Shown: positions 19,097 to 59,541 of the stretch, in pieces
Position numbering within the stretch: position 1 is the first letter of the stretch
Layout: the number at the start of each line of letters is the position of its first letter
Assembly: GCA_001767435.1 (NCBI GenBank)
Contig: MEKT01000101.1
Coordinates: 13,054-77,053 of the forward strand
Direction of reading: 5' to 3'
DNA: 64,000 bases
DNA from: Acidobacteria bacterium RIFCSPLOWO2_02_FULL_65_29
GTDB lineage: Bacteria > Acidobacteriota > Vicinamibacteria > Vicinamibacterales > CAVVIG01
Notes under the pieces: model-generated
What the model was told of the DNA's origin: nothing
Databases searched by the model: none
What the model saw: only the letters and a program-made list of their open reading frames with translations
Translations under genes and position numbers: made by a program

Positions 19097-19242
19097 GATG
19101 GTCTCCTTAACCAGAGCTTCCCACTCCGTGTCTCCGCGCTGGAGACAACGAGCCGAGCCTAAGCCCGCCACGGGTCGATGTCAATTTGAAGTGGCGGACA
19201 TGCCTCGCTCGTGACGCACCAATCTCGTTCCGCATAACGGGC

Positions 19243-19335
19243 TAGGCGCGCACGGCGCGCCTGCGAGGGAGCGGCGCGGGGCGTAGGGGTCCCCGCAAGC
19301 GACCGAGCCGGGGTGTGGGGCAGAGCCCCACGTTA
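19243..19335 (+). repeat. 93-nt double-hairpin intergenic repeat, copy A
   Basis: TAGGCGCGCACGGCGCGCCTGCGAGGGAGCGGCGCGGGGCGTAGGGGTCCCCGCAAGCGACCGAGCCGGGGTGTGGGGCAGAGCCCCACGTTA. Nearly identical to the copies at 38754 and 58258, and inverted relative to the copy at 54038. Confidence 0.85.
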
Positions 19336-21477: not shown

Positions 21478-23682
21478 ATGGCGCGCACACTGTCTAGACA
21501 TCTTCTAAAGCCGATGTCCATGCGAACAAGGCAAGTGTTCGGCTTGCTGGTTCTGCTCGGCGGGGGAATCGCATGGCTCACGCCGCGTGCGGCGGGACAG
21601 GCGGGAAGCGCTGCCTTTCCCAGCACGGCCGCCGGCGACTGGACGCACTACACGGCCGACGCGCGGGGCAGCAAGTACTCGCCGCTCGATCAGATCAACG
21701 CGGCGAATTTCAACAAGCTCGAGGTCGCGTGGCGCTTCAAGACCGACAACCTCGGCACGCGTCCCGAGTACAAGCTCGAAGGCACGCCGCTCGCGATCAA
21801 GGGTGTGATCTACACGACGGCCGGCACACGGCGCTCGGTCGTGGCGCTCGACGCGAAGACCGGCGAGCTCATGTGGGCGTACAGCCTGCGCGAAGGCACC
21901 CGCGCCGCGATCGCGCCACGGCAGCTTTCGGGCCGGGGCGTCGCGTACTGGACCGACGGCCGGGGCGACGACCGCGTGCTGTTTGTCACGACCGGCTATC
22001 GCCTCGTCGCGTTGAACGCGAAGACCGGCCAACCCGTCGCCTCGTTCGGCAGGAACGGCATTGTGGACTTGAAGGAAGGCGCGGTCGTCGGCACGGGCCG
22101 CCAGATCGATCTCGAGACCGGTGAGATCGGCGTGCACTCGACGCCGCTGGTGGTCAAGGACACCGTCATCGTCGGATCGTCGATGAAGGAGGGCATGACG
22201 GTCGTCACGCACGACAACACGAAGGGCCTGGTGCGCGCGTTCGACGCGCGGACGGGCCGGAGGATCTGGCAGTTCAACACGATTCCGCGGCCCGGCGAAT
22301 TCGGCAACGAGACGTGGGAAGAGAACTCGTGGGCGTACAACGGGAACACCGGCGTCTGGACGCAGATGACCGCGGATGAAGACGCCGGCCTGGTGTACCT
22401 GCCGGTCGAGACGCCGACCTCGGACTTCTACGGCGGGCACCGGCCGGGCAACAACCTCTTTGCCGAGAGCCTTGTGGCCGTCGACCTGAAGACGGGCGTG
22501 CGCAAATGGCACTTCCAGTTCGTCCATCATCCGATCTGGAACTTCGACAACTCATCGGCGCCGCTCCTGGCCGATATCAATGTGAACGGCAAGGCGATCA
22601 AGGCCGTCGCCTCGCCGAGCAAGCTCGGGTGGCTCTATGTCTTCGACCGCATCACGGGCCAGCCCGTGTGGCCGATCGAGGAGCGGCCCGTGCCGCAGTC
22701 CGACGTGCCGGGAGAGAAGACGTCGCCGACGCAGCCCCACCCGACCAAGCCGCCGGCGTACGCGCGCAACTCGCTTCTGCCCGAGTACCTGATCGACTTC
22801 ACACCGGAGATGCGCGGCCAAGCGCTCGAGTTGCTGAAGCGGTATCGCTGGGAGCAATCGCCGTTTGGCCCGGCGGTCCTTGGCAGCGTCAACGGACGCC
22901 TCGGCGGCATCGGCGCGGGCACGGCCACCAACTGGCCCGGCGCCTCCTACGATCCGGAAACGCACACCGTGTATGCGCAAGCCGGCAACAACGGGTTCTC
23001 GGCGCGGTCTCTGGCGCCGATGCCGGCGGGGTTCTCCGACATCCGGTACGGGTCGGGCATGGAAGGGCGGCCGTTCCGCGAAGCACTCGGCCCCGGATTT
23101 GGCACGGCCGCCGAATCTCCGCTCGCCGGCGGCAGAGGCCGCGGAGCTGCCGCCGAACCGGCGCCTGCGCCCGCGGCGGCTCCGGCGGGCGGCGCGCCTC
23201 CAGCTGCCGCCGCAGGCGGAGGCGGCGGTCTGAACATCCAGGGCCTGCCGATCGTGAAGCCGCCGTACGGCGTGCTGTCGGCGATCAACCTCGATCGAGG
23301 CGAGTTGAGCTGGCAGGTCCCGCACGGCGATACGCCCGACGCGATTCGCAACCACCCGTTGCTGCGCGGGATGAACATCGGGAAAACCGGCCAGAGCGGC
23401 AGCGTCGGCTTGATGGTCACCAAGACGCTCGTAATCCTCGGCGACGGCCAGGTCACCTCGCCGCCGGGTCGGCCGCGCGGCGCGATGCTCCGTGCGTACG
23501 ACAAGAAGACGGGCCAACAGGTCGGTGAAGTCTGGATGCCGGCGCCGCAAAGCGGGTCGCCGATGACCTATGCGGTCGACGGCCGGCAGTACATCATCAT
23601 CGCCGTGAGCGGCGGCGCGTTTTCGGGTGAGTACATCGCGTTTGCGCTGCCACAAAACGAAGGGCGGCCGAGTCAGCAGTAG
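21478..23682 (+). CDS. soluble PQQ-dependent dehydrogenase, glucose/quinate/shikimate-like family, paralog 1
   Basis: KYSPLDQINAANFNKLEVAWRFKT, repeated xTGExxW propeller motifs, FVHHPIWNFD, and a signal peptide. An alternative start at 21520 (MRTRQVFGLLVLL) is possible. Confidence 0.9.
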   Translation: MARTLSRHLLKPMSMRTRQVFGLLVLLGGGIAWLTPRAAGQAGSAAFPSTAAGDWTHYTADARGSKYSPLDQINAANFNKLEVAWRFKTDNLGTRPEYKLEGTPLAIKGVIYTTAGTRRSVVALDAKTGELMWAYSLREGTRAAIAPRQLSGRGVAYWTDGRGDDRVLFVTTGYRLVALNAKTGQPVASFGRNGIVDLKEGAVVGTGRQIDLETGEIGVHSTPLVVKDTVIVGSSMKEGMTVVTHDNTKGLVRAFDARTGRRIWQFNTIPRPGEFGNETWEENSWAYNGNTGVWTQMTADEDAGLVYLPVETPTSDFYGGHRPGNNLFAESLVAVDLKTGVRKWHFQFVHHPIWNFDNSSAPLLADINVNGKAIKAVASPSKLGWLYVFDRITGQPVWPIEERPVPQSDVPGEKTSPTQPHPTKPPAYARNSLLPEYLIDFTPEMRGQALELLKRYRWEQSPFGPAVLGSVNGRLGGIGAGTATNWPGASYDPETHTVYAQAGNNGFSARSLAPMPAGFSDIRYGSGMEGRPFREALGPGFGTAAESPLAGGRGRGAAAEPAPAPAAAPAGGAPPAAAAGGGGGLNIQGLPIVKPPYGVLSAINLDRGELSWQVPHGDTPDAIRNHPLLRGMNIGKTGQSGSVGLMVTKTLVILGDGQVTSPPGRPRGAMLRAYDKKTGQQVGEVWMPAPQSGSPMTYAVDGRQYIIIAVSGGAFSGEYIAFALPQNEGRPSQQ
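21492..21540 (+). repeat. ~50-nt junction motif, copy i (GTCTAGACATCTTCTAAAGCCGATGTCCATGCGAACAAGGCAAGTGTTC)
   Basis: Shares about 80% identity by eye with 47530-47578 (minus strand) and 38696-43 (that is, 38696-38743, plus strand). Contains the hairpin GACATC-n10-GATGTC. Confidence 0.6.
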
Positions 23683-23684
23683 CA

Positions 23685-23755
23685 TAGTCGTGAGTCGATA
23701 GAATAGTCGTGAGTCGATAGTCGATAGTCGATGGTCGAGAATCGTGAGTCGAAAG
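23685..23755. repeat. heptamer array (TCGATAG / TCGTGAG)
   Basis: Begins 3 nt after the stop of dehydrogenase 1. Confidence 0.8.
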
Positions 23756-23786
23756 AGGTCATCTGGACGCATTGAGGAGTAGGACG

Positions 23787-25946
23787 ATGACGATGAAGAG
23801 AGCTATTCACAGTACGCTTCTGCTGGCGTTTCTCGTCGGGGCGGCCATGCTGATCATGCCGCGGGTGTCGGGCCAGACGCCCTCCGGGTTCCCGAGCACC
23901 AAGAACGGCGAGTGGTGGCACTACACGGCCGACAACACCGGGTCGCGCTTCATGCCGCTCGATCAGATCAACGGATCCAACTTCAACCAGCTCGAGGTCG
24001 CGTGGCGCTTCAAGACCGACAGCCTCGGGCCGTTTCCGGAATACAAACTCGAAGGCACGCCGCTGATGGTCAAGGGCACGATCTACACGACCGGCGGCAC
24101 GAGACGCTCGGTGGTCGCGCTCGACGCGAAAACGGGCGAGCTCCAATGGGTCTACAGTCTGCGTGAGGGCCGCCGCGCCGCGGTGGCGCCCAGGCAGCTC
24201 TCAGGCCGCGGCGTGTCGTACTGGACCGACGGCAAGGGTGACGATCGCGTCGTGTTCGTCACGACGGGCTTCCGGCTCGTCGAGCTCAACGCCCGGACCG
24301 GCCAGCCGGTACAGTCGTTCGGCAAAGCCGGAATCCTGGATCTCAAGGACGGCGTGCAGGTCGGCAACAACCAGCAGATCAACCTGGAAACGGGCGAGAT
24401 CGGCGTGCACTCGACGCCGACGATCGTGCGAGACATCGTGATTATCGGCTCGGCATTCCGCGAGGGCGCGACCGTGTCGACGCACAACAACACGAAGGGG
24501 CTCGTGCGCGGGTTCGACGTCCGAACGGGCAAGAGGCTCTGGACGTTCAACACCATTCCGCGGCCGGGGGAGTTCGGCGCCGAGACGTGGGAAGAAAACT
24601 CGTGGGCGTTCAACGGCAACGTCGGCGTGTGGACGCAGATCAGCGCCGACGCCGACGCCGGACTGGCGTACCTCCCCGTCGAGACGCCGACCTCCGACTT
24701 CTACGGCGGCCACCGGCCAGGCAACAACCTGTTCGCCGAAAGCCTGGTCGCCGTGGACATCCGCACCGGCCAGCGCAAGTGGCACTACCAGCTCGTGCAC
24801 CATCCGCTCTGGAATTTCGACAACTGCTGCGCGTCGCTGCTGGCGGACATCACCGTGGACGGCAAGGCCATCAAGGCCGTGGCGCAGCCGAGCAAGATCG
24901 GTTGGCTGTACGTGTTCGATCGGATCACGGGTCAGCCGGTGTGGCCGATTGAAGAGCGGCCGGTCCCGCAGTCCGACGTGCCCGGAGAGAAGACCTCGCC
25001 GACGCAGCCGCACGTGACGAAGCCGCCGCCGTACGCGCGCACGCACATGCGGGTACCGGACGATCTGATTGACTTCACGCCGCAGCTCCGCCAGCGGGCG
25101 CTCGAGGTCATCAAGCGCTATCGATACGAGCCGTCGCCGTTCATGCCGCCGGCGCTCGGCACCGTCGCCGGCCCGCGGTTCGGGGCGATCAACGCGTCGA
25201 CGGCCACCAACTGGCCCGGCTCCGCCTACGATCCGGAGACGCATACGGTGTTCGCGCAGGCCGGGAACACGGGAGCGTCGGCACGCTCGCTCGTCGCGCC
25301 GCCCACGGGCTTCACCGACATCCGCTACGTCTCGGGGATGGCCGGGCGTCCCTTCCGGGAGGTCTTCGGACCGGGGGATTGCTGCGCGGCAGATGCGGGA
25401 CGCCGGACGGCCGGGGATCGACAGGCCGAGCAGCCGAACGCACCGGCGGCGCCAGCGGCCCCGGTGGCCGATGCCGCTACTGTCGCCGCGGCCAACGCCG
25501 GGCTCAGCGTCGAGGGTCTCCCGATCACGAAGCCGCCCTACGGCGTGCTCTCGGCGATCAACCTCGATCGCGGCGAGCTCGTCTGGCAGGTGCCGCACGG
25601 CGACACGCCCGACAACATCCGCAACCACCCGCTGCTGCGCGGCATGAACATTCCCAAGACGGGCCAGGCCGGCACCTCGGGCGTCGGCTTGATGGTGACC
25701 CGCACGCTCGTCGTCATGGGCGATCCGCAGGTGACGACACCACCGGGACGTCCGCGCGGCGCGATGCTGCGGGCCTACGACAAGAAGACAGGCCAGGAAG
25801 TCGGCGCGCAACTGCTGCCGGCTCCGCAAAGCGGCTCGCCGATGACCTACATGGTCGACGGCCGTCAGTTCATCATCGTCGCCGTCGCGGGCGGCGCCGT
25901 GACAGGCGAGTACATCGCCTATGCGCTGCCACAGACTAGTCGTTAG
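23787..25946 (+). CDS. soluble PQQ-dependent dehydrogenase, paralog 2
   Basis: Start at the ATG at 23787, which has GAGGAG 7 nt upstream. MTMKRAIHSTLLLAFLVGAAMLIMPRVSGQ, and collinear with paralogs 1 and 3. Unique adjacent Cys-Cys (LWNFDNCCASLL, 24825-24830). Confidence 0.9.
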   Translation: MTMKRAIHSTLLLAFLVGAAMLIMPRVSGQTPSGFPSTKNGEWWHYTADNTGSRFMPLDQINGSNFNQLEVAWRFKTDSLGPFPEYKLEGTPLMVKGTIYTTGGTRRSVVALDAKTGELQWVYSLREGRRAAVAPRQLSGRGVSYWTDGKGDDRVVFVTTGFRLVELNARTGQPVQSFGKAGILDLKDGVQVGNNQQINLETGEIGVHSTPTIVRDIVIIGSAFREGATVSTHNNTKGLVRGFDVRTGKRLWTFNTIPRPGEFGAETWEENSWAFNGNVGVWTQISADADAGLAYLPVETPTSDFYGGHRPGNNLFAESLVAVDIRTGQRKWHYQLVHHPLWNFDNCCASLLADITVDGKAIKAVAQPSKIGWLYVFDRITGQPVWPIEERPVPQSDVPGEKTSPTQPHVTKPPPYARTHMRVPDDLIDFTPQLRQRALEVIKRYRYEPSPFMPPALGTVAGPRFGAINASTATNWPGSAYDPETHTVFAQAGNTGASARSLVAPPTGFTDIRYVSGMAGRPFREVFGPGDCCAADAGRRTAGDRQAEQPNAPAAPAAPVADAATVAAANAGLSVEGLPITKPPYGVLSAINLDRGELVWQVPHGDTPDNIRNHPLLRGMNIPKTGQAGTSGVGLMVTRTLVVMGDPQVTTPPGRPRGAMLRAYDKKTGQEVGAQLLPAPQSGSPMTYMVDGRQFIIVAVAGGAVTGEYIAYALPQTSR

Positions 25947-25967
25947 TCGTTAGTCGTTAGTCGTTAG
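25937..25967 (+). repeat. heptamer array, TAGTCGT x4
   Basis: The first unit encodes the last codons of dehydrogenase 2 (ACT AGT CGT). The second unit supplies its TAG stop. Confidence 0.9.
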
Positions 25968-25976
25968 AAGACCTGT

Positions 25977-26078
25977 CAGGGCAAAGAGCACAGGGCCGAG
26001 GGTTGAGGGAAGGGTCGAGGGACCGCCCTTCGCCCTTTGCCCTTTGCCCTTTGCCCTTTGCCGTCTGCCCTTGCCCCC
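25977..26078 (+). repeat. G-tract arm (six GGG runs) followed by a TTGCCCT heptamer array (about 8 units)
   Basis: GGGTTGAGGGAAGGGTCGAGGG (26000-26021) is directly followed by CCGCCCT TCGCCCT TTGCCCT x3 and further units. The two halves are partly complementary. Confidence 0.7.
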
Positions 26079-26162
26079 ACCCCCACATTGGCGCGATAAT
26101 CTTTCGCCGCACTTTTCGTGGAGCCTTTCCTCGTCACTGATCGGATCGGATGGGAGTGAGAT

Positions 26163-28355
26163 ATGAAGCGTAAAGGGTTCGCCAGTCTCGCGTTGCTCGT
26201 CGCACTTGGGGCGGCGGCCGTAGTCGTTTCGCCGCGGCTTTCGGGCCAGGCGACCGGTCAGCCGAGCACCAGGAACGGCGAGTGGCCGATGTACACGGCC
26301 GACTTGCGAGGCAGCAAATATTCGCCGCTCGATCAGATCAACGCGACGAATTTCAGCAAGCTGGAAGTCGCGTGGCGGTTCAAGACCGACAGCCTCGGCC
26401 CGCGCCCCGAGACCAAACTCGAAGGAACGCCGCTGATGGCCAAGGGCATCATCTATACGACGGCCGGCACGCGCCGGGCGGTGGTGGCGCTCGACGGGAA
26501 GACCGGCGAGATGAAGTGGATGCACAGCCAGGACGAAGGCGAGCGCGCCACGCGCTGGGCGCCGCGCCAGTTGTCGGGCCGCGGACTCTCCTACTGGACG
26601 GACGGCCGGGGCGACGAGCGGATCTTCTACGTGACGACCGGCTACCGGCTCGTGTCTCTCAACGCGAGGACGGGACAGCCGATCGCCTCGTTCGGCACGC
26701 GCGGCGTCGTCGACCTCAAGGTCGGCGTGGTGATCGGGAAAGACTCGCAAATCGATCTCGAGCGAGGCGAAATCGGCCTGCACTCGACACCGACCGTGGT
26801 CAACGACACGATCATCGTCGGGTCCTCGATGTTCGAGGGGCTCGGCTACCGCTACAGCACGAACTCCAAGGGCCTGGTTCGCGCGTTCGACGTGAAGACC
26901 GGCAAGCAGCTCTGGCGCTTCAACACGATTCCGATGCCTGGCGAGGTCGGCAACGAGACCTGGGAGAATGGCTCCTGGGAGTGGAGCGGCAACGTCGGCG
27001 TGTGGACGCAAATCACCGTCGATCCCGAGGCGAATCTGGTGTACCTGCCGGTGGAAACCCCGACCATCGACGAGTACGGCGGCAACCGGCCCGGCAACAA
27101 CCTCTTCGCCGAGAGCCTCGTCGCGGTCGATCTGAGAAATGGACAGCGCAAGTGGCACTTCCAGTTCGTGCACCATCCGCTCTGGGACCACGACCTGTCG
27201 TCGGCGGCGCTGCTCATCGACGCCACGATCGACGGCAAGCCGCGCAAGCTCGTGTCGGTCCCAACCAAGCAGGGCTGGCTCTATACGTTCGACCGGATCA
27301 CCGGCCAGCCGATCTGGCCGATGCCGGAAACACCGGTCCCGCAGTCGGATATCCCGAACGAGAAGACGGCGGCGACGCAGCCGATTCCCTCCAAGCCGCC
27401 GCCGTACTCCCGCACGTTTGTCGGCCTCGACGATCTGATCGACTTCACGCCGGCGCTCCGCGCGCAGGCGCTCGAGAACCTCAAGAAGTATCGCTGGGAG
27501 CAGGTGCCCTTTGTGCCTCCCGTGGCGCCGGGATCGAAGTACCTGGGAGCGGTCAACATCGCCAATACGGGCGGCGGCATCAACTGGCCGGGCGCATCGT
27601 TCGATCCGGAAACGGCCACCTTCTACGGTCAGGCCAGCAACTCGTCGGTCACCACGGCCAGCTTCAGCCAGGAGGAGTTCGACCAAATCCGTGTCGAGAA
27701 CCAGACCAGGCGGCTGCCTCGCTGGGAGGCCGAACCGAACTACGGACTCGGGCGCGGCCGCGGCGCGGGCGGCGGTGGCGGTCGTGGGGCGGAGCCCGGG
27801 GGTCGGGGCGTGCCAGGGGCGCCAGGGGCGCCCGGCGCCGCACCGGCGGCCGGCGGGTTTGGCGGAGGCGGCGGCAGAGGCGGCTTGACTGTGGGCCTCG
27901 ACGGCCTGTCGATCGTGAAGCCGCCCTACGGCGTGCTCTCGGCGATCGATCTCAACACGGGCACGCTGAAATTCCAGGTGCCGCACGGCGACACACCGGA
28001 TGCGGTCCGCAACCACCCGCTGCTTCGCAGCATGAACATCCCGAAGACGGGGCAGGGCGGCAGCGTGGGCCTCATGGTCACCAAGACGCTCGTCGTCGTG
28101 GGCGATCCACAGGTCACCGCGCCGCCCGGACGCGCGCGCGGCGCGATGCTGCGGGCCTACAACAAGCAGACCGGCGAGCAGGTCGGCGAAGTGTTGATGC
28201 CCGCGCAGCAAAGCGGTTCGCCGATGACGTATTCGATCGACGGGCGGCAGTACATCATCGTCGCGGTCAGCGGCGGCAACTACACGGGCGAGTACCTGGC
28301 GTTCGCGCTGCCGCAGAGCGAGATTCGTCCGACGACGGGGCAGGGACAGCAGTAG
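26163..28355 (+). CDS. soluble PQQ-dependent dehydrogenase, paralog 3
   Basis: MKRKGFASLALLVALGAAAVVVSPRLSGQ, KYSPLDQINATNFSKLEVAWRFKT, FVHHPLWDHD. Confidence 0.9.
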   Translation: MKRKGFASLALLVALGAAAVVVSPRLSGQATGQPSTRNGEWPMYTADLRGSKYSPLDQINATNFSKLEVAWRFKTDSLGPRPETKLEGTPLMAKGIIYTTAGTRRAVVALDGKTGEMKWMHSQDEGERATRWAPRQLSGRGLSYWTDGRGDERIFYVTTGYRLVSLNARTGQPIASFGTRGVVDLKVGVVIGKDSQIDLERGEIGLHSTPTVVNDTIIVGSSMFEGLGYRYSTNSKGLVRAFDVKTGKQLWRFNTIPMPGEVGNETWENGSWEWSGNVGVWTQITVDPEANLVYLPVETPTIDEYGGNRPGNNLFAESLVAVDLRNGQRKWHFQFVHHPLWDHDLSSAALLIDATIDGKPRKLVSVPTKQGWLYTFDRITGQPIWPMPETPVPQSDIPNEKTAATQPIPSKPPPYSRTFVGLDDLIDFTPALRAQALENLKKYRWEQVPFVPPVAPGSKYLGAVNIANTGGGINWPGASFDPETATFYGQASNSSVTTASFSQEEFDQIRVENQTRRLPRWEAEPNYGLGRGRGAGGGGGRGAEPGGRGVPGAPGAPGAAPAAGGFGGGGGRGGLTVGLDGLSIVKPPYGVLSAIDLNTGTLKFQVPHGDTPDAVRNHPLLRSMNIPKTGQGGSVGLMVTKTLVVVGDPQVTAPPGRARGAMLRAYNKQTGEQVGEVLMPAQQSGSPMTYSIDGRQYIIVAVSGGNYTGEYLAFALPQSEIRPTTGQGQQ

Positions 28356-31735: not shown

Positions 31736-32632
31736 GTGCCTCGCTTCAAGCTGACGATCGAGTACGCCGGCACGCGCTACAGCGGCTGGCAGATTCAGAA
31801 AAATGCGCGCACGGTCCAGGGCGAGATCGATCGCGCGGTCCGCGCGGTGACAGGACGCGGCGACTTCGAGCTGTACGGATCGGGTCGCACCGATGCGGGC
31901 GTGCACGCGCTGGCCCAGGTGGCGCACCTCGACGTCAGCACGAGTCTCACCGCCGAGGCGCTCGTCCCACGTCTCAACGACGAATTGCCGTCCGACATCA
32001 ATGTGCTTCGGGCAGCGGTGGTGCCCCACAGATTTCACGCCAGGCACGACGCGGTGGCACGGCGATACGTCTATCAGATCGCCAGACGCCGGACGGCCTT
32101 CGCCAAGCCGTTTGTCTGGTGGGTGCGCGAACCGCTCGATCTGACCCGGATGCGCGAGGCCGCCGCGGCGTTTGTCGGCATGAAGGATTTTCAGTCGTTT
32201 GCGGCGATGGACGACGACGAACGGGCAGGCGGGGCACCAAGCGTGGCGCGCAGGGCTGGCGGGACCGAAGGAGCGCGTACACCGGACCGAAAGTCGACGC
32301 TCGTGCTGGTCGAGCGTCTCGACGTGGTCGAGGCCGGCGATCTGGTGCTCGTCGGCATCGAGGGCTCGCACTTCCTGTGGAAGATGGTGCGGCGAGTGGT
32401 GGGGGTCCTCGTGGAAATTGGACGCGGCGGGCTGGCACCGTCGGCGGCGGCGGGCTTTCTCCTCGAGTCGTCTGGCGCACCGGCGCGTCTCACCGCACCG
32501 GCGTCTGGATTGTTTCTCGAGCGCGTGTGGCACCAAGGAGACGCCCGCGACGTGCCGCTCCGCGCTGCGACGCCGCTCTACGACGTCGGATCGAGGCGAA
32601 CGCCGAGCACGAGCCGCACGACCTCGCGGTAG
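31736..32632 (+). CDS. truA: tRNA pseudouridine(38-40) synthase TruA
   Basis: Start set at the in-frame GTG at 31736 (VPRFKLTIEYAGTRYSGWQIQ). GSGRTDAGVHALAQVAH contains the catalytic Asp. RRYVYQI is also present. Confidence 0.85.
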   Translation: MPRFKLTIEYAGTRYSGWQIQKNARTVQGEIDRAVRAVTGRGDFELYGSGRTDAGVHALAQVAHLDVSTSLTAEALVPRLNDELPSDINVLRAAVVPHRFHARHDAVARRYVYQIARRRTAFAKPFVWWVREPLDLTRMREAAAAFVGMKDFQSFAAMDDDERAGGAPSVARRAGGTEGARTPDRKSTLVLVERLDVVEAGDLVLVGIEGSHFLWKMVRRVVGVLVEIGRGGLAPSAAAGFLLESSGAPARLTAPASGLFLERVWHQGDARDVPLRAATPLYDVGSRRTPSTSRTTSR

Positions 32633-33642
32633 CTGCCGCGTCCGGCCTCGACGCGGTTCGCTTTCAGATACCGATCGTACACGTGCCAGCCGGCGTCGGC
32701 CACGATCGGACGGATGTTGCGGCGCGCGCGCTCGAACGCCGCGCGCAGGTCCGCGCGCGGACCCGCATCGAGGCGGGCGCTCACTTCCTGTCGATCAGCG
32801 TCCCTCAACCCAGCGACGACCTCCTGGTAAAGGAACATCCAGCCGCTGTATTGTGCGGCCACCGATCCTTTCGTACACGTCAGCCAGCCGACGAAGTTGG
32901 CCTCTCCTTCGTCGGCGAATCCGGCCAAGTGGCTCCATTCGTGCGCGATGACGTGAGATCGCTCGAAGGGCACGAGGTCGCTGACGACGAGCGTCTCGAG
33001 GAAGTAGGGATCGGTCATGCCCGCCACGCCGGCGGCCTTGAAGTACGAATCGAGTATCGACTGCTTCGGCCGACCCGGACGCGCCGGTCTTGCCACCCCG
33101 AGCGCGCGCTGCGCATCGGCGAACGCCCGCGCCAGAGAAGGATCGACGGGTTGGGCCATCACATCGCCTGCGTGAGCACTCGGAAAGAGTGCGTTGATCC
33201 TTTCGACGGCGCTGATCGCCAACGCGTGGGCGGCTTGGGGCGACACTCCGGCCGGATCGAAGCGGACCTTTTCGATCAGCGGAAGCCGCCGGTAGTTCAG
33301 ACCCCACGTCGCGAAGAAGGCCAGGGACAAGACCGCCAACGCCAGTGTCACTCGGACCAGCCAGTTGATGCCTGGCACTCGCAAGCCGGTTGTTCTGGCC
33401 ATGACGATCGCTCGGGCGGTCTGCCATGCGAACCACGCCGCGCCGGCGAGGAGGAACACGTCGACCAGCGCAATCGACGTACGGTTCGAGAGGCCCGTCA
33501 CGGCGCGCTGCACCAGCGGGAAGAGCGCGCTCGAATAGTACCGCTCGACCGCCGCGGAGGGCAGCGGCGCGAGTGCGGCGGCGACCGCAAGCGCGATCAC
33601 CGTGATCGAGGCCGCTCGCCAGAGCCTGGCTCCTTTAAACAT
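32578..33642 (-). CDS. DUF3810-like membrane metalloprotease-fold protein
   Basis: N-terminal TM segments, GLNYRRLP, and HEWSHLAGFADEGEANFVG (HExxH-like). Overlaps the truA 3' end by 55 nt in a convergent arrangement. Confidence 0.8.
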   Translation of the reverse strand: MFKGARLWRAASITVIALAVAAALAPLPSAAVERYYSSALFPLVQRAVTGLSNRTSIALVDVFLLAGAAWFAWQTARAIVMARTTGLRVPGINWLVRVTLALAVLSLAFFATWGLNYRRLPLIEKVRFDPAGVSPQAAHALAISAVERINALFPSAHAGDVMAQPVDPSLARAFADAQRALGVARPARPGRPKQSILDSYFKAAGVAGMTDPYFLETLVVSDLVPFERSHVIAHEWSHLAGFADEGEANFVGWLTCTKGSVAAQYSGWMFLYQEVVAGLRDADRQEVSARLDAGPRADLRAAFERARRNIRPIVADAGWHVYDRYLKANRVEAGRGSYREVVRLVLGVRLDPTS

Positions 33643-33735
33643 CGTCTAAAGCTCGTCTAAAGCCATGATCGTGACTTTCACCGACCCAGAGGCTTCGTTT
33701 CCTCGTCGGTTTGAGGCGCGAGCTTCGTTACTCGG
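33639..33735 (+). repeat. ~95-nt junction element, copy v, with an internal 11-nt duplication (TCGTCTAAAGC x2)
   Basis: ACATCGTCTAAAGC[TCGTCTAAAGC]CATGATCGTGAC...AGAGGCTTCGTTTCCTCGTCGGTTTGAGGCGCGAGCTTCG aligns with the reverse complement of 55127-55203. Confidence 0.6.
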
Positions 33736-37361: not shown

Positions 37362-38709
37362 TGGCCGCTCCGGCCACGCGGTTGCGCTGGTCGCCCTGGC
37401 CGGCTGGGCGCTCTTTGCCTTTGCCGGCGCCTATCGCTGGACCGTTGTCCCCCTCATGGCCGGCGCCGCGATTCTGGCCGCCTTCGTTCGTCCGTCACTC
37501 TTTCGCCCGCCACATCGCCTGGTCGACGCGTCGATCGTGGCGTGCCTGCTGGTCACGGGTGCGCAGCTGATTCCGCTGCCGCTCGCCGTGCGCGCAGCCA
37601 TCTCCCCCGCCGCGGCGGAGGTCGAACGCCAGCTCCTCTTCGATGCCGGCGCATCCACCCGTCCGCTGTCGCTCGACGCGGCGTCGACGCTCTGGGCGCT
37701 GGCGAGTGGGACGGCCATGGCATTGATCTTCTGGAGCGCGCGCTCTGTGTTTGCGCGCGGCGCGGGACTCCGCGTGGTGGCGCGGTGGACGGCCTGGTTC
37801 GGGCTCGCCTTGGCCGCCGTCATGTTCGTCCAGCGGGCGGCGACGCCCGGGCTGATCTACGGCTTCTGGACGCCGATGACCAGGGCATCCCATCCGACTC
37901 CGCTCGGCCCGTTCGTCAACCGAAACGACATCGCCACGTGGCTGATGCTCGCGTGTCCGCTCGTCGTTGGGTACCTCATGGCACGGTGGTCGTCTCGGGT
38001 GGCGCGGCCGGGCGGTCGCCGCAACATCGAGACGTTCGTCGATTCGCGGGCGCTCTGGCTCGGCATGTCGGCCTGTCTGATGATTGCCGCGCTTCTGGCG
38101 TCGCTGTCGCGGTCGGGCCTGTTCGGCGCCGCCGTGGCCGTCTGCGTGTTCGCCCTTCTGGCGCGCCGGCGCGTGTCGGGCCGTCGCCTCGGCTGGAGCC
38201 TGGCCGCCGTCGGCCTCGCCGTGGCGGTCGCCACGATGTACGTGAATCTCGACGCGCTCGCGCAGCGGATCAGCGACACCCTGCCGTCAAATCTCGGGGG
38301 GCGCCTCGCCGTGTGGCGCGAGACGTGGCCGATGGCGCGCGACTTCCCGCTCACGGGCATCGGTGTCGGGGCGTTCGAGCGCGGCATGCTGGTCTACCAG
38401 CAGAGTACACGGCTGATCTTCTTCAATCACGCGCACAATGAGTACCTGCAGGTGCTGGTCGAAGGCGGGTGGCTGCTCGCGGCGCCGGCCGCGATTGCGA
38501 TCGTTGTGGGCTGGTGGGGTGTGCGAGCGCGGCTTGGATCGGATCGCACGCCGATGTTCTGGGTACGGGTCGGAGCGGCGAGCGGGTTGGCGGCCGTCGC
38601 GGCGCAAAGCCTCTGGGACACGGGCCTCCGGATGCCGGCCAGCGCGGTACTGTTCGCGATCGTCGCGGCGGCCGCGCTCCACGACGATCCAGCACCAGAC
38701 ATCTTCTAA
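37264..38709 (+). CDS. O-antigen ligase / polymerase (Wzy/WaaL) family membrane protein
   Basis: Multiple TM helices, and NHAHNEYLQVLVEGG, which is typical of the Wzy_C family. The start is uncertain: GTG at 37264 overlaps Wzc by 98 nt, and the next in-frame ATG is at 37456. Confidence 0.75.
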   Translation: MSSSTRSTSRGTSTTIRATTDTSTRATTRGSASGRSGHAVALVALAGWALFAFAGAYRWTVVPLMAGAAILAAFVRPSLFRPPHRLVDASIVACLLVTGAQLIPLPLAVRAAISPAAAEVERQLLFDAGASTRPLSLDAASTLWALASGTAMALIFWSARSVFARGAGLRVVARWTAWFGLALAAVMFVQRAATPGLIYGFWTPMTRASHPTPLGPFVNRNDIATWLMLACPLVVGYLMARWSSRVARPGGRRNIETFVDSRALWLGMSACLMIAALLASLSRSGLFGAAVAVCVFALLARRRVSGRRLGWSLAAVGLAVAVATMYVNLDALAQRISDTLPSNLGGRLAVWRETWPMARDFPLTGIGVGAFERGMLVYQQSTRLIFFNHAHNEYLQVLVEGGWLLAAPAAIAIVVGWWGVRARLGSDRTPMFWVRVGAASGLAAVAAQSLWDTGLRMPASAVLFAIVAAAALHDDPAPDIF

Positions 38710-38743
38710 AGCCCCTGTCCCTACGAATGAAGCAAGTCTTGGG
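38696..38743 (+). repeat. ~50-nt junction motif, copy ii (degenerate)
   Basis: CAGACATCTTCTAAAGCCCCTGTCCCTACGAATGAAGCAAGTCTTGGG. Its TAA is the stop codon of the ligase gene. Confidence 0.55.
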
Positions 38744-38753
38744 TTTTAACAGT

Positions 38754-38846
38754 TAGGCGCGCACGGCGCGCCTGCGAGGGAGCGGCGCGGGGCGTAGGGG
38801 TCCCCGCAAGCGACCGAGCCGGGGTGTGGGGCGGAGCCCCACGTGA
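38754..38846 (+). repeat. 93-nt double-hairpin intergenic repeat, copy B
   Basis: Near-identical to the copies at 19243 and 58258. Confidence 0.85.
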
Positions 38847-46080: not shown

Positions 46081-46905
46081 TCACGATGCCTCCGTCTGCC
46101 GGTTCTCGACGGGCTTCCGCAGGACGAACCAGACCTGCGTGGCCAGATGCGGGCCAAGCCACGGCAGCGGCGAGGCCACGGTCTTCTCGAGCACGAACCG
46201 TCCGCGAAGACGCGCCCGAAGCGACATCCAGTTGAAGCCCTTGTGATCGTGAAACGGCGAGGCGCCGGCGGCGCCAGACACAGGCCGAACCAGATGCTGC
46301 CGCTCGCCCGCCCACACGCTGCGCCAGTACTCGCCTAGCGTGTAGGGGCTCGTGCCCGGATAGTCGCCAATTCCGCGCCACCCGGCCAGTCGGCGCGCGG
46401 CCTGCTTGACGAGCAGCGGCAGGCCGGTTTCGACAGGAACGCTCACCAGCAGCGTGCCGCCTGGCGCCAGGACCCGCCATAACCGATCGATCACAGCGTC
46501 GAGGACGACGACGTGCTCGAGCACCTCCATACAGACGACGCCATCGTACCGCGCTCGGTGCTCGTCATCGTCGAGTGCCGGGACCAGCGCGAAGCGGAGC
46601 CCCCGGCGCTCGCCCAGCCGTGCCTGGCAGTCGCTGACCTGAAACTGGTCGATCTCGACACCGAGGGCCTCGACAGGCGGTGACGGTCCAGCCGAGAGCA
46701 GCGCGAGGAACGTTCCGTCGCCGCATCCGTAGTCGAGAACGCTCTGCCCGGCGAACCGCGCGGCCAGGCGAAGGCCGACCTCGAAGCGGCGCCGATGGCT
46801 CCACGCGATCAGAGGATCCCTGCAGAAGATCTGCTTGGTCGCGTAGTGCCCCTCGCGGAGCGCGGGATCGACGCCCTTCAGAACTTCCGCTCCCGAGCTT
46901 CCCAC
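46081..46905 (-). CDS. class I SAM-dependent methyltransferase
   Basis: SVLDYGCGDGTFLALL, VVCMEVLEHV, LAPGGTLLVSVP. Confidence 0.8.
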   Translation of the reverse strand: MGSSGAEVLKGVDPALREGHYATKQIFCRDPLIAWSHRRRFEVGLRLAARFAGQSVLDYGCGDGTFLALLSAGPSPPVEALGVEIDQFQVSDCQARLGERRGLRFALVPALDDDEHRARYDGVVCMEVLEHVVVLDAVIDRLWRVLAPGGTLLVSVPVETGLPLLVKQAARRLAGWRGIGDYPGTSPYTLGEYWRSVWAGERQHLVRPVSGAAGASPFHDHKGFNWMSLRARLRGRFVLEKTVASPLPWLGPHLATQVWFVLRKPVENRQTEAS

Positions 46906-47486
46906 GCGCCTCGGAGGGTGATCCAGAACGACACGAGAATGAGCCTGAGATCGAGGAGCAACGATCGCCGTCGGATGTAGAGCAGATCGAAACGGAACTT
47001 CTGGCGGCGCGAGACGTCGCGAGGCGCGTAGATCTGCGCGATGCCTGTGAGGCCCGGTGGCACGGAGGTCCGCTCGGGGAAGCCGGGAATGGCGTGAAGC
47101 GGCACACGCGCGCCGTTGGCGTCCACCTCGATTTCTTCTGGCCGGAGCGCTCGCGGGCCGACAACGCTCATATCGCCGCGAAAGATGTTCCAGAGCTGCG
47201 GCAGCTCGTCCAGGGCGGTGGCCCGGAGCAGCGTACCAACGCGCGTGACGCGGGGATCGCGCTCGACAGCCTGTACGGGGCCCACACCGCGCTCGGCGTC
47301 GGGAATCATGGAACGGAACTTCAGCGCGTCGAACGCACGCCCGCCCTCGCCGACGCGGCCTTGCGCATAGAACACGGGGCCGCCATCCTCGATCTTGATC
47401 GCCAGCGCGATCGCCACCGAGAGCGGTGCGGACAGGACCAGACCGAGGCCCGATAGCACAACGTCCAGCGCGCGCTTTGTGGTCAC
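46878..47486 (-). CDS. priming polyprenyl-phosphate sugar phosphotransferase (bacterial sugar transferase family)
   Basis: KRALDVVLSGLGLVLSAPL, GGPVFYAQGRVGEGGRAFDALKFRSM, DELPQLWNIFRGDMSVVGPRA. Confidence 0.9.
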   Translation of the reverse strand: MTTKRALDVVLSGLGLVLSAPLSVAIALAIKIEDGGPVFYAQGRVGEGGRAFDALKFRSMIPDAERGVGPVQAVERDPRVTRVGTLLRATALDELPQLWNIFRGDMSVVGPRALRPEEIEVDANGARVPLHAIPGFPERTSVPPGLTGIAQIYAPRDVSRRQKFRFDLLYIRRRSLLLDLRLILVSFWITLRGAWEARERKF

Positions 47487-47529
47487 GGTAGCGAAGCTTC
47501 GCCTACATCGCCGAGTAACGGGCCCGTGA

Positions 47530-47578
47530 GAACACTTGCCTCATTCGCTTGGACATCGGCGTTGCAAGATGTCTAGAC
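47530..47578 (-). repeat. ~50-nt junction motif, copy iii
   Basis: The minus strand reads GTCTAGACATCTTGCAACGCCGATGTCCAAGCGAATGAGGCAAGTGTTC. Its TAG is the stop of the upstream glycosyltransferase, and it lies 40-90 nt upstream of the sugar-transferase start. Confidence 0.6.
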
Positions 47579-54037: not shown

Positions 54038-54262
54038 TAACGTGGGGCTCCGCCCCACACCTCGGCTCGGTCGCTCGCGCCGTTCGACAGGCTCACGACG
54101 CCCTGAGCTCGTCCAAGGGCGAGGACCCCAACGCCCCGCGCCGCTCCCTCGCCCTTCGACCCTTCGACTTGGCTCAGGCTCGTCCCGAGCTCAGTCGAGG
54201 GACGACAATGCCCAGGGCGTCCCGAGCATCGTCGAGGGACGCAGGCGCGCCGTGCGCGCCTA
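54038..54262 (-). repeat. expanded (225-nt) inverted copy of the 93-nt double-hairpin repeat, copy D
   Basis: Both termini and the central GGACCCCAACGCCCCGCGCCGCTCCCTCGC match the reverse complement of the 93-nt consensus, with two internal insertions of about 47 and 85 nt. Its terminal CCTA provides the stop of gene 54260-55126. Confidence 0.8.
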
Positions 54263-55126: not shown

Positions 55127-55203
55127 GTCAGGTCGCGAAGCGTCGCCTCACACCGCCGAGAAAAACGAAGCCTCTGTCAGGATCATGGCCTTAGAAGATG
55201 TCT
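55127..55203 (-). repeat. ~77-nt junction element, copy iv
   Basis: The minus strand reads GACATCTTCTAAGGCCATGATCCTGACAGAGGCTTCGTTTTTCTCGGCGGTGTGAGGCGACGCTTCGCGACCTGAC, then the ATG at 55126. It forms the last 18 codons of the upstream GT4 gene. Confidence 0.55.
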
Positions 55204-58250: not shown

Positions 58251-58257
58251 GACGGCC

Positions 58258-58350
58258 TAGGCGCGCACGGCGCGCCTGCGAGGGAGCGGCGCGGGGCGAA
58301 GGGGTCCCCGCAAGCGACCGAGCCGGGGTGTGGGGCGGAGCCCCACGTTA
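58258..58350 (+). repeat. 93-nt double-hairpin intergenic repeat, copy C
   Basis: Fills the gap between two co-oriented EPS genes. Its terminal GTTA supplies the TAA stop of gene 58348-59541. Confidence 0.85.
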
Positions 58351-59541
58351 GAAGATGCCTTTGAGCGCCGCGATCGTGTGGCGCAGATCGAACCGGGCGT
58401 CGTACAGCGCGGCCCCGCGTCGCGCGAGATCGGCGCGCCTCACCGGATCGTCGAGTAACGCCGCGGCCGTCGCCGCCAGCGCGTCCAGGTCGCCGGCGGG
58501 CACAAGGGCGGCGGCGGCGGCACCGCGCCAGATGGGCTCGGTCAGCGACCCCTCGGTCGTCACCACCGGCACCCCGTGCGCGAGCGCCGTCATCGCGCTC
58601 GTCCGGCGGCTGCTGATGCCGTCGGGGTACGGTTGCAGCATCAACGCGCACGCGCGAATGTGGCGCGACACGTCGTCGGCCTCGAGCGAACCGGCCGCGA
58701 CGACGCGTTCGGTGAGCTCCGGGTGCTTCGCGACGAGATCGGCGCGCGCCGCGGCGCTTCCCTGGCCCATGAGGAGCACGCGGCAGTCGGCCCGCGCCAG
58801 AAGCCCGACGACCGCGGCCTCGACGAGTGGCGCGATCAAGTCGCCGTAGGTGCCGAAATGGCCGACGAGGGGACGCCCCTGTCCGTATCGGACGGCGATT
58901 TCGTCGGCCGCCCGGCGATCGTCCACGACGGCGATCGCGGTTGGCACGGGCAGCCACGCCACAGGCGTGCCCGCACGCGTGACTGCGCCGACGCCGGCCC
59001 GCCAGGCTGGAATGGACACGAACGCGCGTTCCGCCGCGCCTCCCACGAGCCAGGCCATGACGCGATTGACGGCCGCCAGGAGGTTGCGGGCGATGCCGGC
59101 CGCTCGGTCGAACGGATACGCCACCTCGTGAAACATCACCCAGACCCGGTCGCGCCGGCGTGATCGAAGCCACAGGCAGAAAGGAAGGTTGGCGGCTTTC
59201 CAGCCGAACGCGTGGGGCACGTACTGAACGAGCACTCGGTGAGGGCGCCGCGCGCGGTCCAGCGCCTCCGACAGGCGGCGGAGCGACCGCGGGCCGTACC
59301 AGTCCGGCAGGCGTCGCAGCTCCACACGCGGATCGCCAGGAGCGCCCAACTCAGTCGCCGGCGGCGCCCAGACGACGACATGGTCCCCTGACGCGGCCAG
59401 GCCTCGAGCGACCAGCCGGGTGTAGTCGCTCACGCCACCCGGCTGCGGGGGATATTCACCGGTGAGGATGTGCCATTCGAGCACGGCAGCCGCGGGCGCG
59501 GGAACGGCTGCTGGCCGCACGATGGCGGCCTCGCCGGTCAT
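58348..59541 (-). CDS. glycosyltransferase (GT-B fold, family 1/4-like)
   Basis: The track ORF (687 aa) is trimmed to the ATG at 59541 (ATGA overlap with the flippase stop). WHILTGEYPPQPGGVSDYT, SSRRTSAMTALAHGVPVVTT. Confidence 0.8.
   Translation of the reverse strand: MTGEAAIVRPAAVPAPAAAVLEWHILTGEYPPQPGGVSDYTRLVARGLAASGDHVVVWAPPATELGAPGDPRVELRRLPDWYGPRSLRRLSEALDRARRPHRVLVQYVPHAFGWKAANLPFCLWLRSRRRDRVWVMFHEVAYPFDRAAGIARNLLAAVNRVMAWLVGGAAERAFVSIPAWRAGVGAVTRAGTPVAWLPVPTAIAVVDDRRAADEIAVRYGQGRPLVGHFGTYGDLIAPLVEAAVVGLLARADCRVLLMGQGSAAARADLVAKHPELTERVVAAGSLEADDVSRHIRACALMLQPYPDGISSRRTSAMTALAHGVPVVTTEGSLTEPIWRGAAAAALVPAGDLDALAATAAALLDDPVRRADLARRGAALYDARFDLRHTIAALKGIF

Follow-up and report, generated by a model that had tools for sequence, protein, structure and literature searches.

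A mosaic three-hairpin repeat behind CTAG at gene junctions of Vicinamibacteria, probably a non-autonomous mobile element

The DNA studied here (hereafter the window) is a stretch of 64,000 nt from the genome of Acidobacteria bacterium RIFCSPLOWO2_02_FULL_65_29 (G000:C101:13054-77053, where G000 designates this source genome, a 5.5-Mb assembly of 239 contigs with 65% G+C and a completeness of 97%). A first-pass annotation of the window had described short related sequences at several gene boundaries, had sorted them into families D and E, and had suggested that they were portable stop/restart cassettes, leader-peptide attenuators or promoter-carrying repeats. Our results indicate, with a probability that we estimate at about 85%, that they derive from a non-coding, non-autonomous mobile element, a mosaic of three hairpins that inserts after (C)TAG; its bias towards gene junctions follows from this target, and it is not a control cassette. 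[quoted passage not shown] Our literature search found no paper describing repeats of this sort in Vicinamibacteria or Luteitalea.

All five sequences reported for the window were present where they had been placed, and their common module stood above background. Six window matches to the 15-mer ACATCTTCTAARGCC were recorded with up to three mismatches, against 0.69 expected, and none of 100 dinucleotide-preserving shuffles reached six. Across G000, the same 15-mer occurred 36 times exactly, 68 times with at most one mismatch and 97 times with at most two, while a scan with nhmmer profiles returned 87 hits distributed over 82 loci. The preference for gene junctions was likewise borne out at the genome level, 88% of the element bases being non-coding according to our own gene calls (a codon-usage caller that yielded 4782 genes and a coding density of 87%).

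Modular organization and folding

Once the hits were displayed with their flanks, ACATCTTCTAARGCC proved to be the left arm of an imperfect palindrome of about 65 nt, termed M1, with the layout CTAG-ACATCTTCTAAAGCCG - loop - CGGCTTTAGAAGCTGTC-TTAG. In most copies it was followed by M2, a GC hairpin of the form GCGGCCGC-N4-GCGGCCGC, and then by M3, a second palindrome of about 70 nt (GTAGCGAAGATTCGCC ... CTCGGCGGTTTGAGGCGAAGCTTCGCTAC). Seed alignments showed sharp boundaries for the M1+M2+M3 composite, which measured 150-170 nt (157 nt in subfamily A, 172 nt in subfamily B). The subfamily A consensus consisted of ACATCTTCTAAAGCCG-loop-CGGCTTTAGAAGCTGTCTTAG for M1, TGCGGCCGC-AAAG-CGGCCGCC for M2 and TAG-TAGCGAAGATTCGCC...CTCGGCGGTTTGAGGCGAAGCTTCGCTAC for M3. 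Families D and E were thus rightly considered to be related, but neither is free-standing: D corresponds to the first ~50 nt of subfamily A, and E to a subfamily B element deleted in its middle, where the right part of M3 follows the M1 left arm and CATGATCGTGAC.

At least three M1 variants were distinguished among the ~82 loci of G000. The third one (C-type), encountered at three G000 loci and in genome G036, displayed a wholly different stem (AGCCGTGCTTGCACGG / CCGTGCAA..GGCT) within an unchanged architecture. Modules were also exchanged, since C44:4226 and C165 combined a B-type M1 with A-type M2 and M3, and C50 displayed the reverse combination. The profiles recognized about 30 end-to-end copies in G000, of which 28 exceeded 135 nt and the others were internally deleted forms, together with partial copies reduced to the left part (21) or to M3 (19). 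Several copies that seemed to consist of the left part only had retained the last 10-15 nt of M3, and the C205 copy consisted of nothing but 17 nt from either end; both termini thus survive internal deletion.

The left end ACATCTTCTAA... was unrelated to the reverse complement of the right end GTAGCGAAGCTTCG..., and only M1 and M3 were individually palindromic, M1 with CTAG/CTAAG feet and M3 with arms GTAGCGAAG(A/C)TTCGCC inverted around a spacer of ~35 nt. The right end was always ...TTCG(C/T)TAC, with variable sequence beyond it. Conservation was highest at the termini and, among the segments outside the search pattern, in the final ~30 nt, CTCGGCGGTTTGAGGCG(A/G)AGCTTCG(C/T)TAC, and in the word TGA(A/G)GCAAGT of the loop. 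All genomes searched had kept, in the stem of M1, a T·C mismatch (GACATC versus GACAGC). The hairpin GACATC-n10-GATGTC, which had been attributed to all three family D copies, was encountered in subfamily A and not elsewhere; full-length copies pair the left arm of M1 with its right arm instead, and it is this right arm that the window copies have lost.

Folding of consensus A predicted three hairpins (-85.8 kcal/mol, z = -8.0), and consensus B reached z = -6.5. Compensatory changes were recorded in an alignment of 100 full-length copies, 26 from G000 and 74 from more than 15 other metagenome-assembled genomes (MAGs). M1 columns 19/68 displayed G-C in 54 copies, A-U in 43 and a broken pair in 3; in M3, columns 136/203 displayed G-C in 62 and A-U in 37, and columns 133/206 G-C in 81 and C-G in 10. 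M2 was replaced in some lineages by other GC hairpins (CCCCGC-GGAG-CGGGG or GCCCCGC-TTC-GCGGGGC). These changes mostly separate subfamilies and therefore represent few independent events. They show selection for the hairpins and are compatible with action as RNA or as DNA; palindromic DNA can likewise fold on either strand.

The same data bear on the possibility that the repeat acts mainly as RNA, its spread being secondary, either as cis-acting processing or stability segments (as Correia and ERIC elements do) or as small RNA genes. The very low z values, the compensatory changes in all three modules, the conserved loop word and the location of many copies inside operons, where they must be co-transcribed, would all suit such a role; yet the palindromes form equally good folds on either strand and in DNA, the covariation lies mostly between subfamilies, and about one in three copies in tandem spacers runs opposite to the adjacent genes. 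Furthermore, a scan of a full copy revealed neither a sigma-70-like promoter, contrary to the idea of a promoter-carrying repeat, nor an intrinsic terminator. Five loci with full-length copies, compared with Rfam 15 at E <= 1, returned only a weak SNORA52 match (E = 0.33, 21 bits for a gathering score of 71), which was taken as chance. We regard a primary function as RNA as very unlikely.

The leader-peptide attenuator fared no better, since the mini-ORF (open reading frame) of the loop was not conserved among the 100 full-length copies. The loop ATG motif was absent from 33 of them and replaced by TTG in 15 others (48 of 100 altogether). Where the ATG was present, the ORF comprised 5 or 9 codons or stayed open through the element, depending on the subfamily.

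The CTAG target and gene junctions

In full-length G000 copies, the positions preceding ACATC were C in 25 of 31, T in 26 and A in 30, followed by G. The element proper thus extends from ACATC to ...CG(C/T)TAC and lies directly 3' of (C)TAG. This tetranucleotide is eight-fold depleted in G000, with 2177 sites for ~17,600 expected from base composition, and those sites located outside elements were 55% intergenic, 20% overlapping a stop codon and 25% coding. The junction habit is explained by insertion following CTAG, since the latter is depleted and mainly found in spacers or on TAG stops. Insertion behind CTAG, combined with the loss of disruptive insertions, would produce a repeat that is intergenic and abuts a TAG stop in about one sixth to one quarter of its copies; the share observed was 13 of 52 intact left ends adjoining the TAG of a gene in the same sense. 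In addition, three genes stopped at the TAA of the arm and one read deeper into the element. The frequent closeness of start codons to the right end has its explanation in the tight packing of operons, where a few bases separate a stop from the following start. A single insertion rule and a genomic word bias may hence generate an apparent junction element devoid of regulatory purpose. Besides CTAG, the rarest tetranucleotides of G000 were TTAA, CTAA and TATA, and its stop codons, on our own gene calls, were TGA (2370), TAG (1538) and TAA (733).

Comparison of filled and empty sites was based on a panel of 41 genomes, i.e. G000 and 40 relatives; the latter belong to different genera, so that empty sites were inferred across flanks that are 70-80% identical. 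Nineteen loci were filled in another MAG between blocks collinear with G000, and 17 of them were empty in G000; the two shared ones (C41:1899 and C18:18613) carried shortened copies there. At locus L111, the filled spacer was 150 nt longer than its empty counterpart on C117 of G000. Removal of the element from L111 restored GTG GCG ACT AG/A CTG CCG CCG ACG GAA GTC GTG ATC ATT GGG (the slash marks the junction), i.e. M-A-T-R-L-P-P-T-E-V-V-I-I-G, which matches the N-terminus MPTRLPETDVVIVG of the empty orthologue, and the empty site contains a single CTAG.

In the converse test, the flanks of 16 G000 loci were joined and searched in the 40 relatives. They were contiguous at eight loci: C16:122071 (empty in about 20 or more genomes), C33:2366 (the atpE/atpF junction), C207, C44:5424, C237, C165 and the window copies ii and iv (listed below). 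At C16, relatives displayed ...TTC AAC ATC TGA (C/T)C ATG GCT... and G000 ...TTC AAT ATC TAG-(167 nt)-TT ATG GCT...; at C207, CAC TGA in relatives corresponded to CAC TAG in G000. The polA stop at C44 occupied an unchanged codon (GGC TAG or CCC TGA in relatives, CAC TAG in G000), and atpE at C33 likewise ended at the boundary TAG. As the stop falls at the same codon in relatives at these four loci, the TAG is the host gene's own. At the junction orthologous to C16:122071, an unrelated 69-nt insert was observed after ...AATATC TAG in the relative G006 (G006:C2:1482741-1482811, locus L153); this one TAG-stop junction thus seems to have been the target of a second, independent insertion by another sequence.

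A target duplication of TA or CTA was judged unlikely for these copies, as duplication of TA would remove the conserved stops at C16, C207, C44 and C33 and as the TA at one end varies independently of that at the other: where the left flank was GA or AA, the right end still had TA. Insertion after the host TAG and without duplication reproduced both the stop position and the spacer length of the relatives at all four loci.

These observations leave little room for a dedicated stop/restart cassette. The ~82 copies of the genome lie beside unrelated genes, their loci are not conserved, and the boundary TAG belongs to the host at the four loci mentioned above. The element does contribute signals of its own, namely a TAA in a second frame of the left arm, beside the host TAG, and two signals on the opposite strand: a TAG or TAA that reads inward from the right end, and an ATG that reads outward from the left end (GATGTC). 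Stop/restart cassette is therefore an apt description, but given loci that are not shared between species and a main stop that comes from the host, we read the stop and start effects as side effects.

A host-selected variant of this idea, in which the repeat is an operon-junction device that ends the upstream frame and restores downstream expression via its conserved right end GGTTTGAGGCGAAGCTTCGCTAC (which contains GAGG), appears very improbable. The near-invariance of the right-terminal ~30 nt in more than 15 species, outside the search pattern, would fit such a role, but the GAGG lies at least 14 nt from the element end, too far for normal Shine-Dalgarno spacing. An ATG was located within 8 nt of the right end in about 10 of 31 full-length copies, where a base-composition estimate gives roughly 2-3 by chance, and a predicted start in the same sense within 10 nt of 8 of 52 right ends; however, this proximity follows from insertion at the stops of packed operons. 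G000 loci comprised 30 divergent, 42 tandem and 2 convergent spacers, i.e. enrichment in the first type and depletion in the last, and within tandem spacers 28 copies had the same sense as the genes and 14 were antisense (p = 0.04). This orientation bias and spacer preference also speak for the device. Against it, loci are not conserved between species, relatives manage equivalent junctions with spacers of 2-10 nt or overlapping stop/start codons, the boundary TAG is the host's own stop, copies decay by deletion, and the promoter scan was empty.

Four points weigh against insertion of a mobile element behind (C)TAG as a full account. The CTAG rule leaves the scarcity in convergent spacers unexplained (2 of 74 copies, against 14.6% of CTAG sites, p = 0.0014). 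One subtype, represented by L111, displays CTAG at both ends and also fits a target duplication of 2-4 bp. The mobilising enzyme was not found after Y1/RAYT, TnpB and IS110 searches and, finally, gene positions rest on our own crude caller.

Distribution, related systems and the search for an enzyme

Matches to the repeat were found in 7 of the 41 genomes and nothing in the other 34. Besides G000, the composite was abundant only in G019, from the same family, and in G037, from another family of the same order; M3 pieces occurred in G020, G036, G002 and G021. G037 carried dozens of copies of a GACATCTCCTAAGGCC variant, many of them at contig ends. A scan for complete M1 hairpins, with one genome per species, returned 104 stretches, and the titles shown for them were those of Acidobacteria gp6, Vicinamibacteria, Vicinamibacterales and Luteitalea MAGs from soil and groundwater, one being labelled Actinomycetota. 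As far as these matches go, the family is confined to genomes of Vicinamibacteria, is patchy among them, and its subfamilies are lineage-specific. Pairwise identity of full copies was 0.87 (A) and 0.86 (B) in G000, with a maximum of 0.94, against 0.94, with a maximum of 0.98, in Luteitalea sp. Dino_bin50; because of this difference, the family is probably old and inactive in G000 and younger in Dino_bin50.

REP sequences, REPINs and BIMEs are known from Enterobacteria, Pseudomonas and Stenotrophomonas, those of the last being SMAG, the GTAG repeats (PMC3184786, PMC3116915). Like them, the present repeat is an extragenic, GC-rich imperfect palindrome occurring in tens to hundreds of copies. Its M3 arms, made of GTAG and a palindrome (GTAG-CGAAGCTTCG), form a REPIN-like doublet, and its units compose BIME-like mosaics with modules shuffled between copies. 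In contrast, its units are much longer (65-70 nt), they are assembled into a 150-170-nt composite of fixed polarity, and insertion takes place 3' of CTAG. Also unlike REPs, which are typically common between convergent genes, it is nearly absent from such positions. G000 has no RAYT (Y1) gene, and Y1 genes elsewhere are not flanked by elements, save for one degraded fragment in G037.

Classical bacterial MITEs comprise the Correia/NEMIS elements of Neisseria, ERIC, Nezha and the RPE of Rickettsia (PMC3184786, PMC2229807, PMC10969869). With these the repeat shares a size below 200 bp, a high copy number, stable predicted folds and a location at gene boundaries, and, as for RPE and some ERIC or Correia copies, fusion to reading frames that alters gene ends. 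It differs from them in that the ends of the composite are not mutual inverted repeats and in the lack of a clear target-site duplication, a parent insertion sequence (IS) or a promoter motif.

PATEs are non-autonomous derivatives of IS200/IS605 elements. Shared features are the absence of whole-element terminal inverted repeats, no requirement for target duplication, a hairpin at each end, insertion directly 3' of a specific tetranucleotide, and internal deletions that keep both ends. The hairpins of the present repeat nevertheless reach the very termini, whereas the cleavage sites of IS608 are outside its hairpins. Neither TnpA (PF01797) nor TnpB (PF07282) was detected in G000, TnpB was absent from five element-bearing genomes, and none of the genomes searched yielded an autonomous copy with these ends. 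The anatomy appears most similar to that of single-strand HUH transposition (IS200/IS605 PATEs and REP/RAYT) because of the hairpin at each end, the absence of overall inverted repeats, the tetranucleotide 5' of the insert and the target-like 3' end, which reads CTAC, TTAC or CTAG. By analogy with IS200/IS605 and REP/RAYT, the element would move in the form of single-stranded DNA hairpins, with the cutting done by a trans-acting enzyme. Membership of the IS200/IS605 PATE and REP/RAYT families fails on the defining partner gene.

PF01797, which covers Y1/RAYT/IS200 proteins, had no match in G000 (97% complete, 239 contigs). It occurred in 25 of the 41 genomes without evident relation to the presence of the element, and in all five further element-bearing MAGs that were searched. 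Flanks of the Y1 loci were scanned with element profiles and arm regular expressions, and a RAYT/IS200 partner was discarded as 28 Y1 loci from the relatives and the five MAGs lacked element arms within 1.5 kb, with one exception. The latter (G037:C25:11650-12700, i.e. locus L134 2150-3200) is a degraded IS200-type tnpA that has lost its middle and is frame-shifted, but keeps the N-terminal YHVVFIPKYRRK and C-terminal ARGHFVSTV motifs. Its stop is followed, 15 nt further on, by an M3-like copy, and part of an M3 left arm (CTAGCCGCGAAGATTCGACC) is located ~500 nt upstream. It is the only physical link seen between Y1 and the repeat and could be due to chance; a second IS200 end in G037 had an unrelated right end.

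Other candidates were rejected as well. A TnpB omega-RNA origin was dismissed as PF07282 was absent from five element-bearing genomes. An IS110/bridge-RNA origin received no support from nhmmer and blastn-short, which detected no meaningful element similarity within 2.5 kb of the G000 transposases. G000 contains nine DEDD transposase matches, and its IS110-type copies on C16, C48, C56 and C93 are 82-92% alike, several of them lying at contig ends. No paired ends 0.3-6 kb apart, as expected for an autonomous copy, occurred in G000 or G045, and every left end of G045 had its right end ~151 nt away. The gene enclosed by two inward-facing copies on C44 encodes 338 aa without any Pfam family, lies beside polA and is not transposase-like.

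A more specific proposal, which we consider unlikely, is that the family, and perhaps also the M0 repeat described below, has been moved by a hairpin-reading, (C)TAG-directed enzyme that is particular to Vicinamibacteria, escapes current transposase models and places its insertions exactly after TAG stops within operons, and/or that the strongly conserved right end has been co-opted to maintain the expression of downstream genes once such an insertion has occurred. The repeat has well-defined ends and a well-defined target but no recognisable transposase, and the mobile DNA of its phylum has barely been described, which makes it a tractable place to seek the enzyme.

Copies in the window and the M0 repeat

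The refined coordinates of the window copies, which treat the flanking TAG as host sequence, are as follows.

21498-21545, plus strand: copy i, subfamily A remnant running from the M1 left arm through the loop to 6 nt into the right arm (positions 1-51 of the hidden Markov model, HMM).
33639-33731, plus strand: copy iv, subfamily B with an internal deletion; an M1 left arm carrying a duplication of 11 nt is joined to the right half of M3.
38699-38753, plus strand: copy iii, degenerate remnant of subfamily A, with the left arm and loop of M1.
47488-47572, minus strand: copy ii, subfamily A with an internal deletion that brings the M1 left arm and loop up against the right half of M3.
55132-55201, minus strand: copy v, subfamily B with an internal deletion, in which the right third of M3 follows the M1 left arm.
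58348-58360, minus strand: possible M1 left-arm remnant of 13 nt (AGGCATCTTCTAA), 12 of 13 positions matching, without detection by the profiles.

All five copies are old truncated or deleted remnants that contribute stops, C-terminal codons and probably one start by accident. Three window genes were confirmed to end in or at the module, namely the ligase and the glycosyltransferase (GT4) genes with stops at 47573 and 55148 (protein domains were assigned with Pfam).

Copy i is preceded by TAG at 21495-21497 and lies within the 5' end of the ORF of pyrroloquinoline quinone (PQQ) dehydrogenase 1. As the first-pass annotation had suspected, the element probably supplies the start of this gene: translation from the loop ATG at 21520, a likely start codon on sequence grounds, gives MRTRQVFGLLVLLGGGIAWLTPRAAGQ (MRTRQVF...) with a 27-aa signal peptide, compared with 29-30 aa in the two paralogues. 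A longer ORF from 21478 passes through the arm in frame, so that element sequence is coding with either start. The region 21478-28355 comprises three tandem PQQ dehydrogenase paralogues, each with a signal peptide, and only the first has a 5' end built from the repeat.

Copy iv runs antisense to the two genes beside it, between which relatives have a spacing of 3 nt. Its 3' terminus holds the TAA stop of a dienelactone hydrolase gene (33728-33730, minus strand) and its 5' terminus the likely ATG of ORF 32578-33642 (minus strand). Copy iii provides the O-antigen ligase (Wzy_C) gene with its last three codons (D-I-F) and its TAA stop (38707-38709), all from the arm. It had been placed upstream of the priming sugar transferase, but a methyltransferase gene follows it, and it is copy ii that occupies this position. 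Copy ii fills the gap of 86 nt that separates the TAG stop (47573-47575) of a GT4 gene from the GTG start (47486) of the Bac_transf priming sugar transferase (46878-47486), and the orthologous flanks are contiguous in genome G024. Similarly, the last 18 codons of a GT4 gene, previously assigned to copy iv, are encoded by copy v (QTSSKAMILTEASFFSAV), which includes the TGA stop (55148-55150) and ends 5 nt before the next ATG (55126).

The sequence at 58348-58360 supplies the TAA stop of gene 58348-59541, and an M0 repeat directly follows it. At this place GGCATCTTCTAA matches 12 of 13 arm positions and no nhmmer hit was obtained; the sequence is possibly what remains of an M1 left arm.

Stop and start codons located in or beside such repeats can mislead gene callers, and candidates for misannotation in the window are the three glycosyltransferase or ligase C-termini, the start of PQQ dehydrogenase 1 and the ORF at 33642. 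The repeat also breaks short-read MAG assemblies, many copies being found at contig ends in G019 and G037.

M0 is a second dispersed repeat, GC-rich and at least 91 nt long, unrelated to the M1-M3 family. It reads CGTGGGGCTCCGCCCCAC...GGCGCGCCGTGCGCGCCTAG and continues into CCCGTTATGC. Its window copies are the following.

19242-19332, minus strand: M0.
38754-38843, minus strand: M0.
54041-54262, plus strand: M0, split form.
58257-58347, minus strand: M0.

About 45 full M0 copies with 97-100% identity were recorded in G000, together with ~30 copies split into three blocks by inserts of ~40 nt. Being far more uniform than the M1-M3 family, M0 probably spread more recently. Its left flank is usually CT(C/A)A and, at C163:48192, its terminal CTAG has been used as a landing site by an M1-M3 element.

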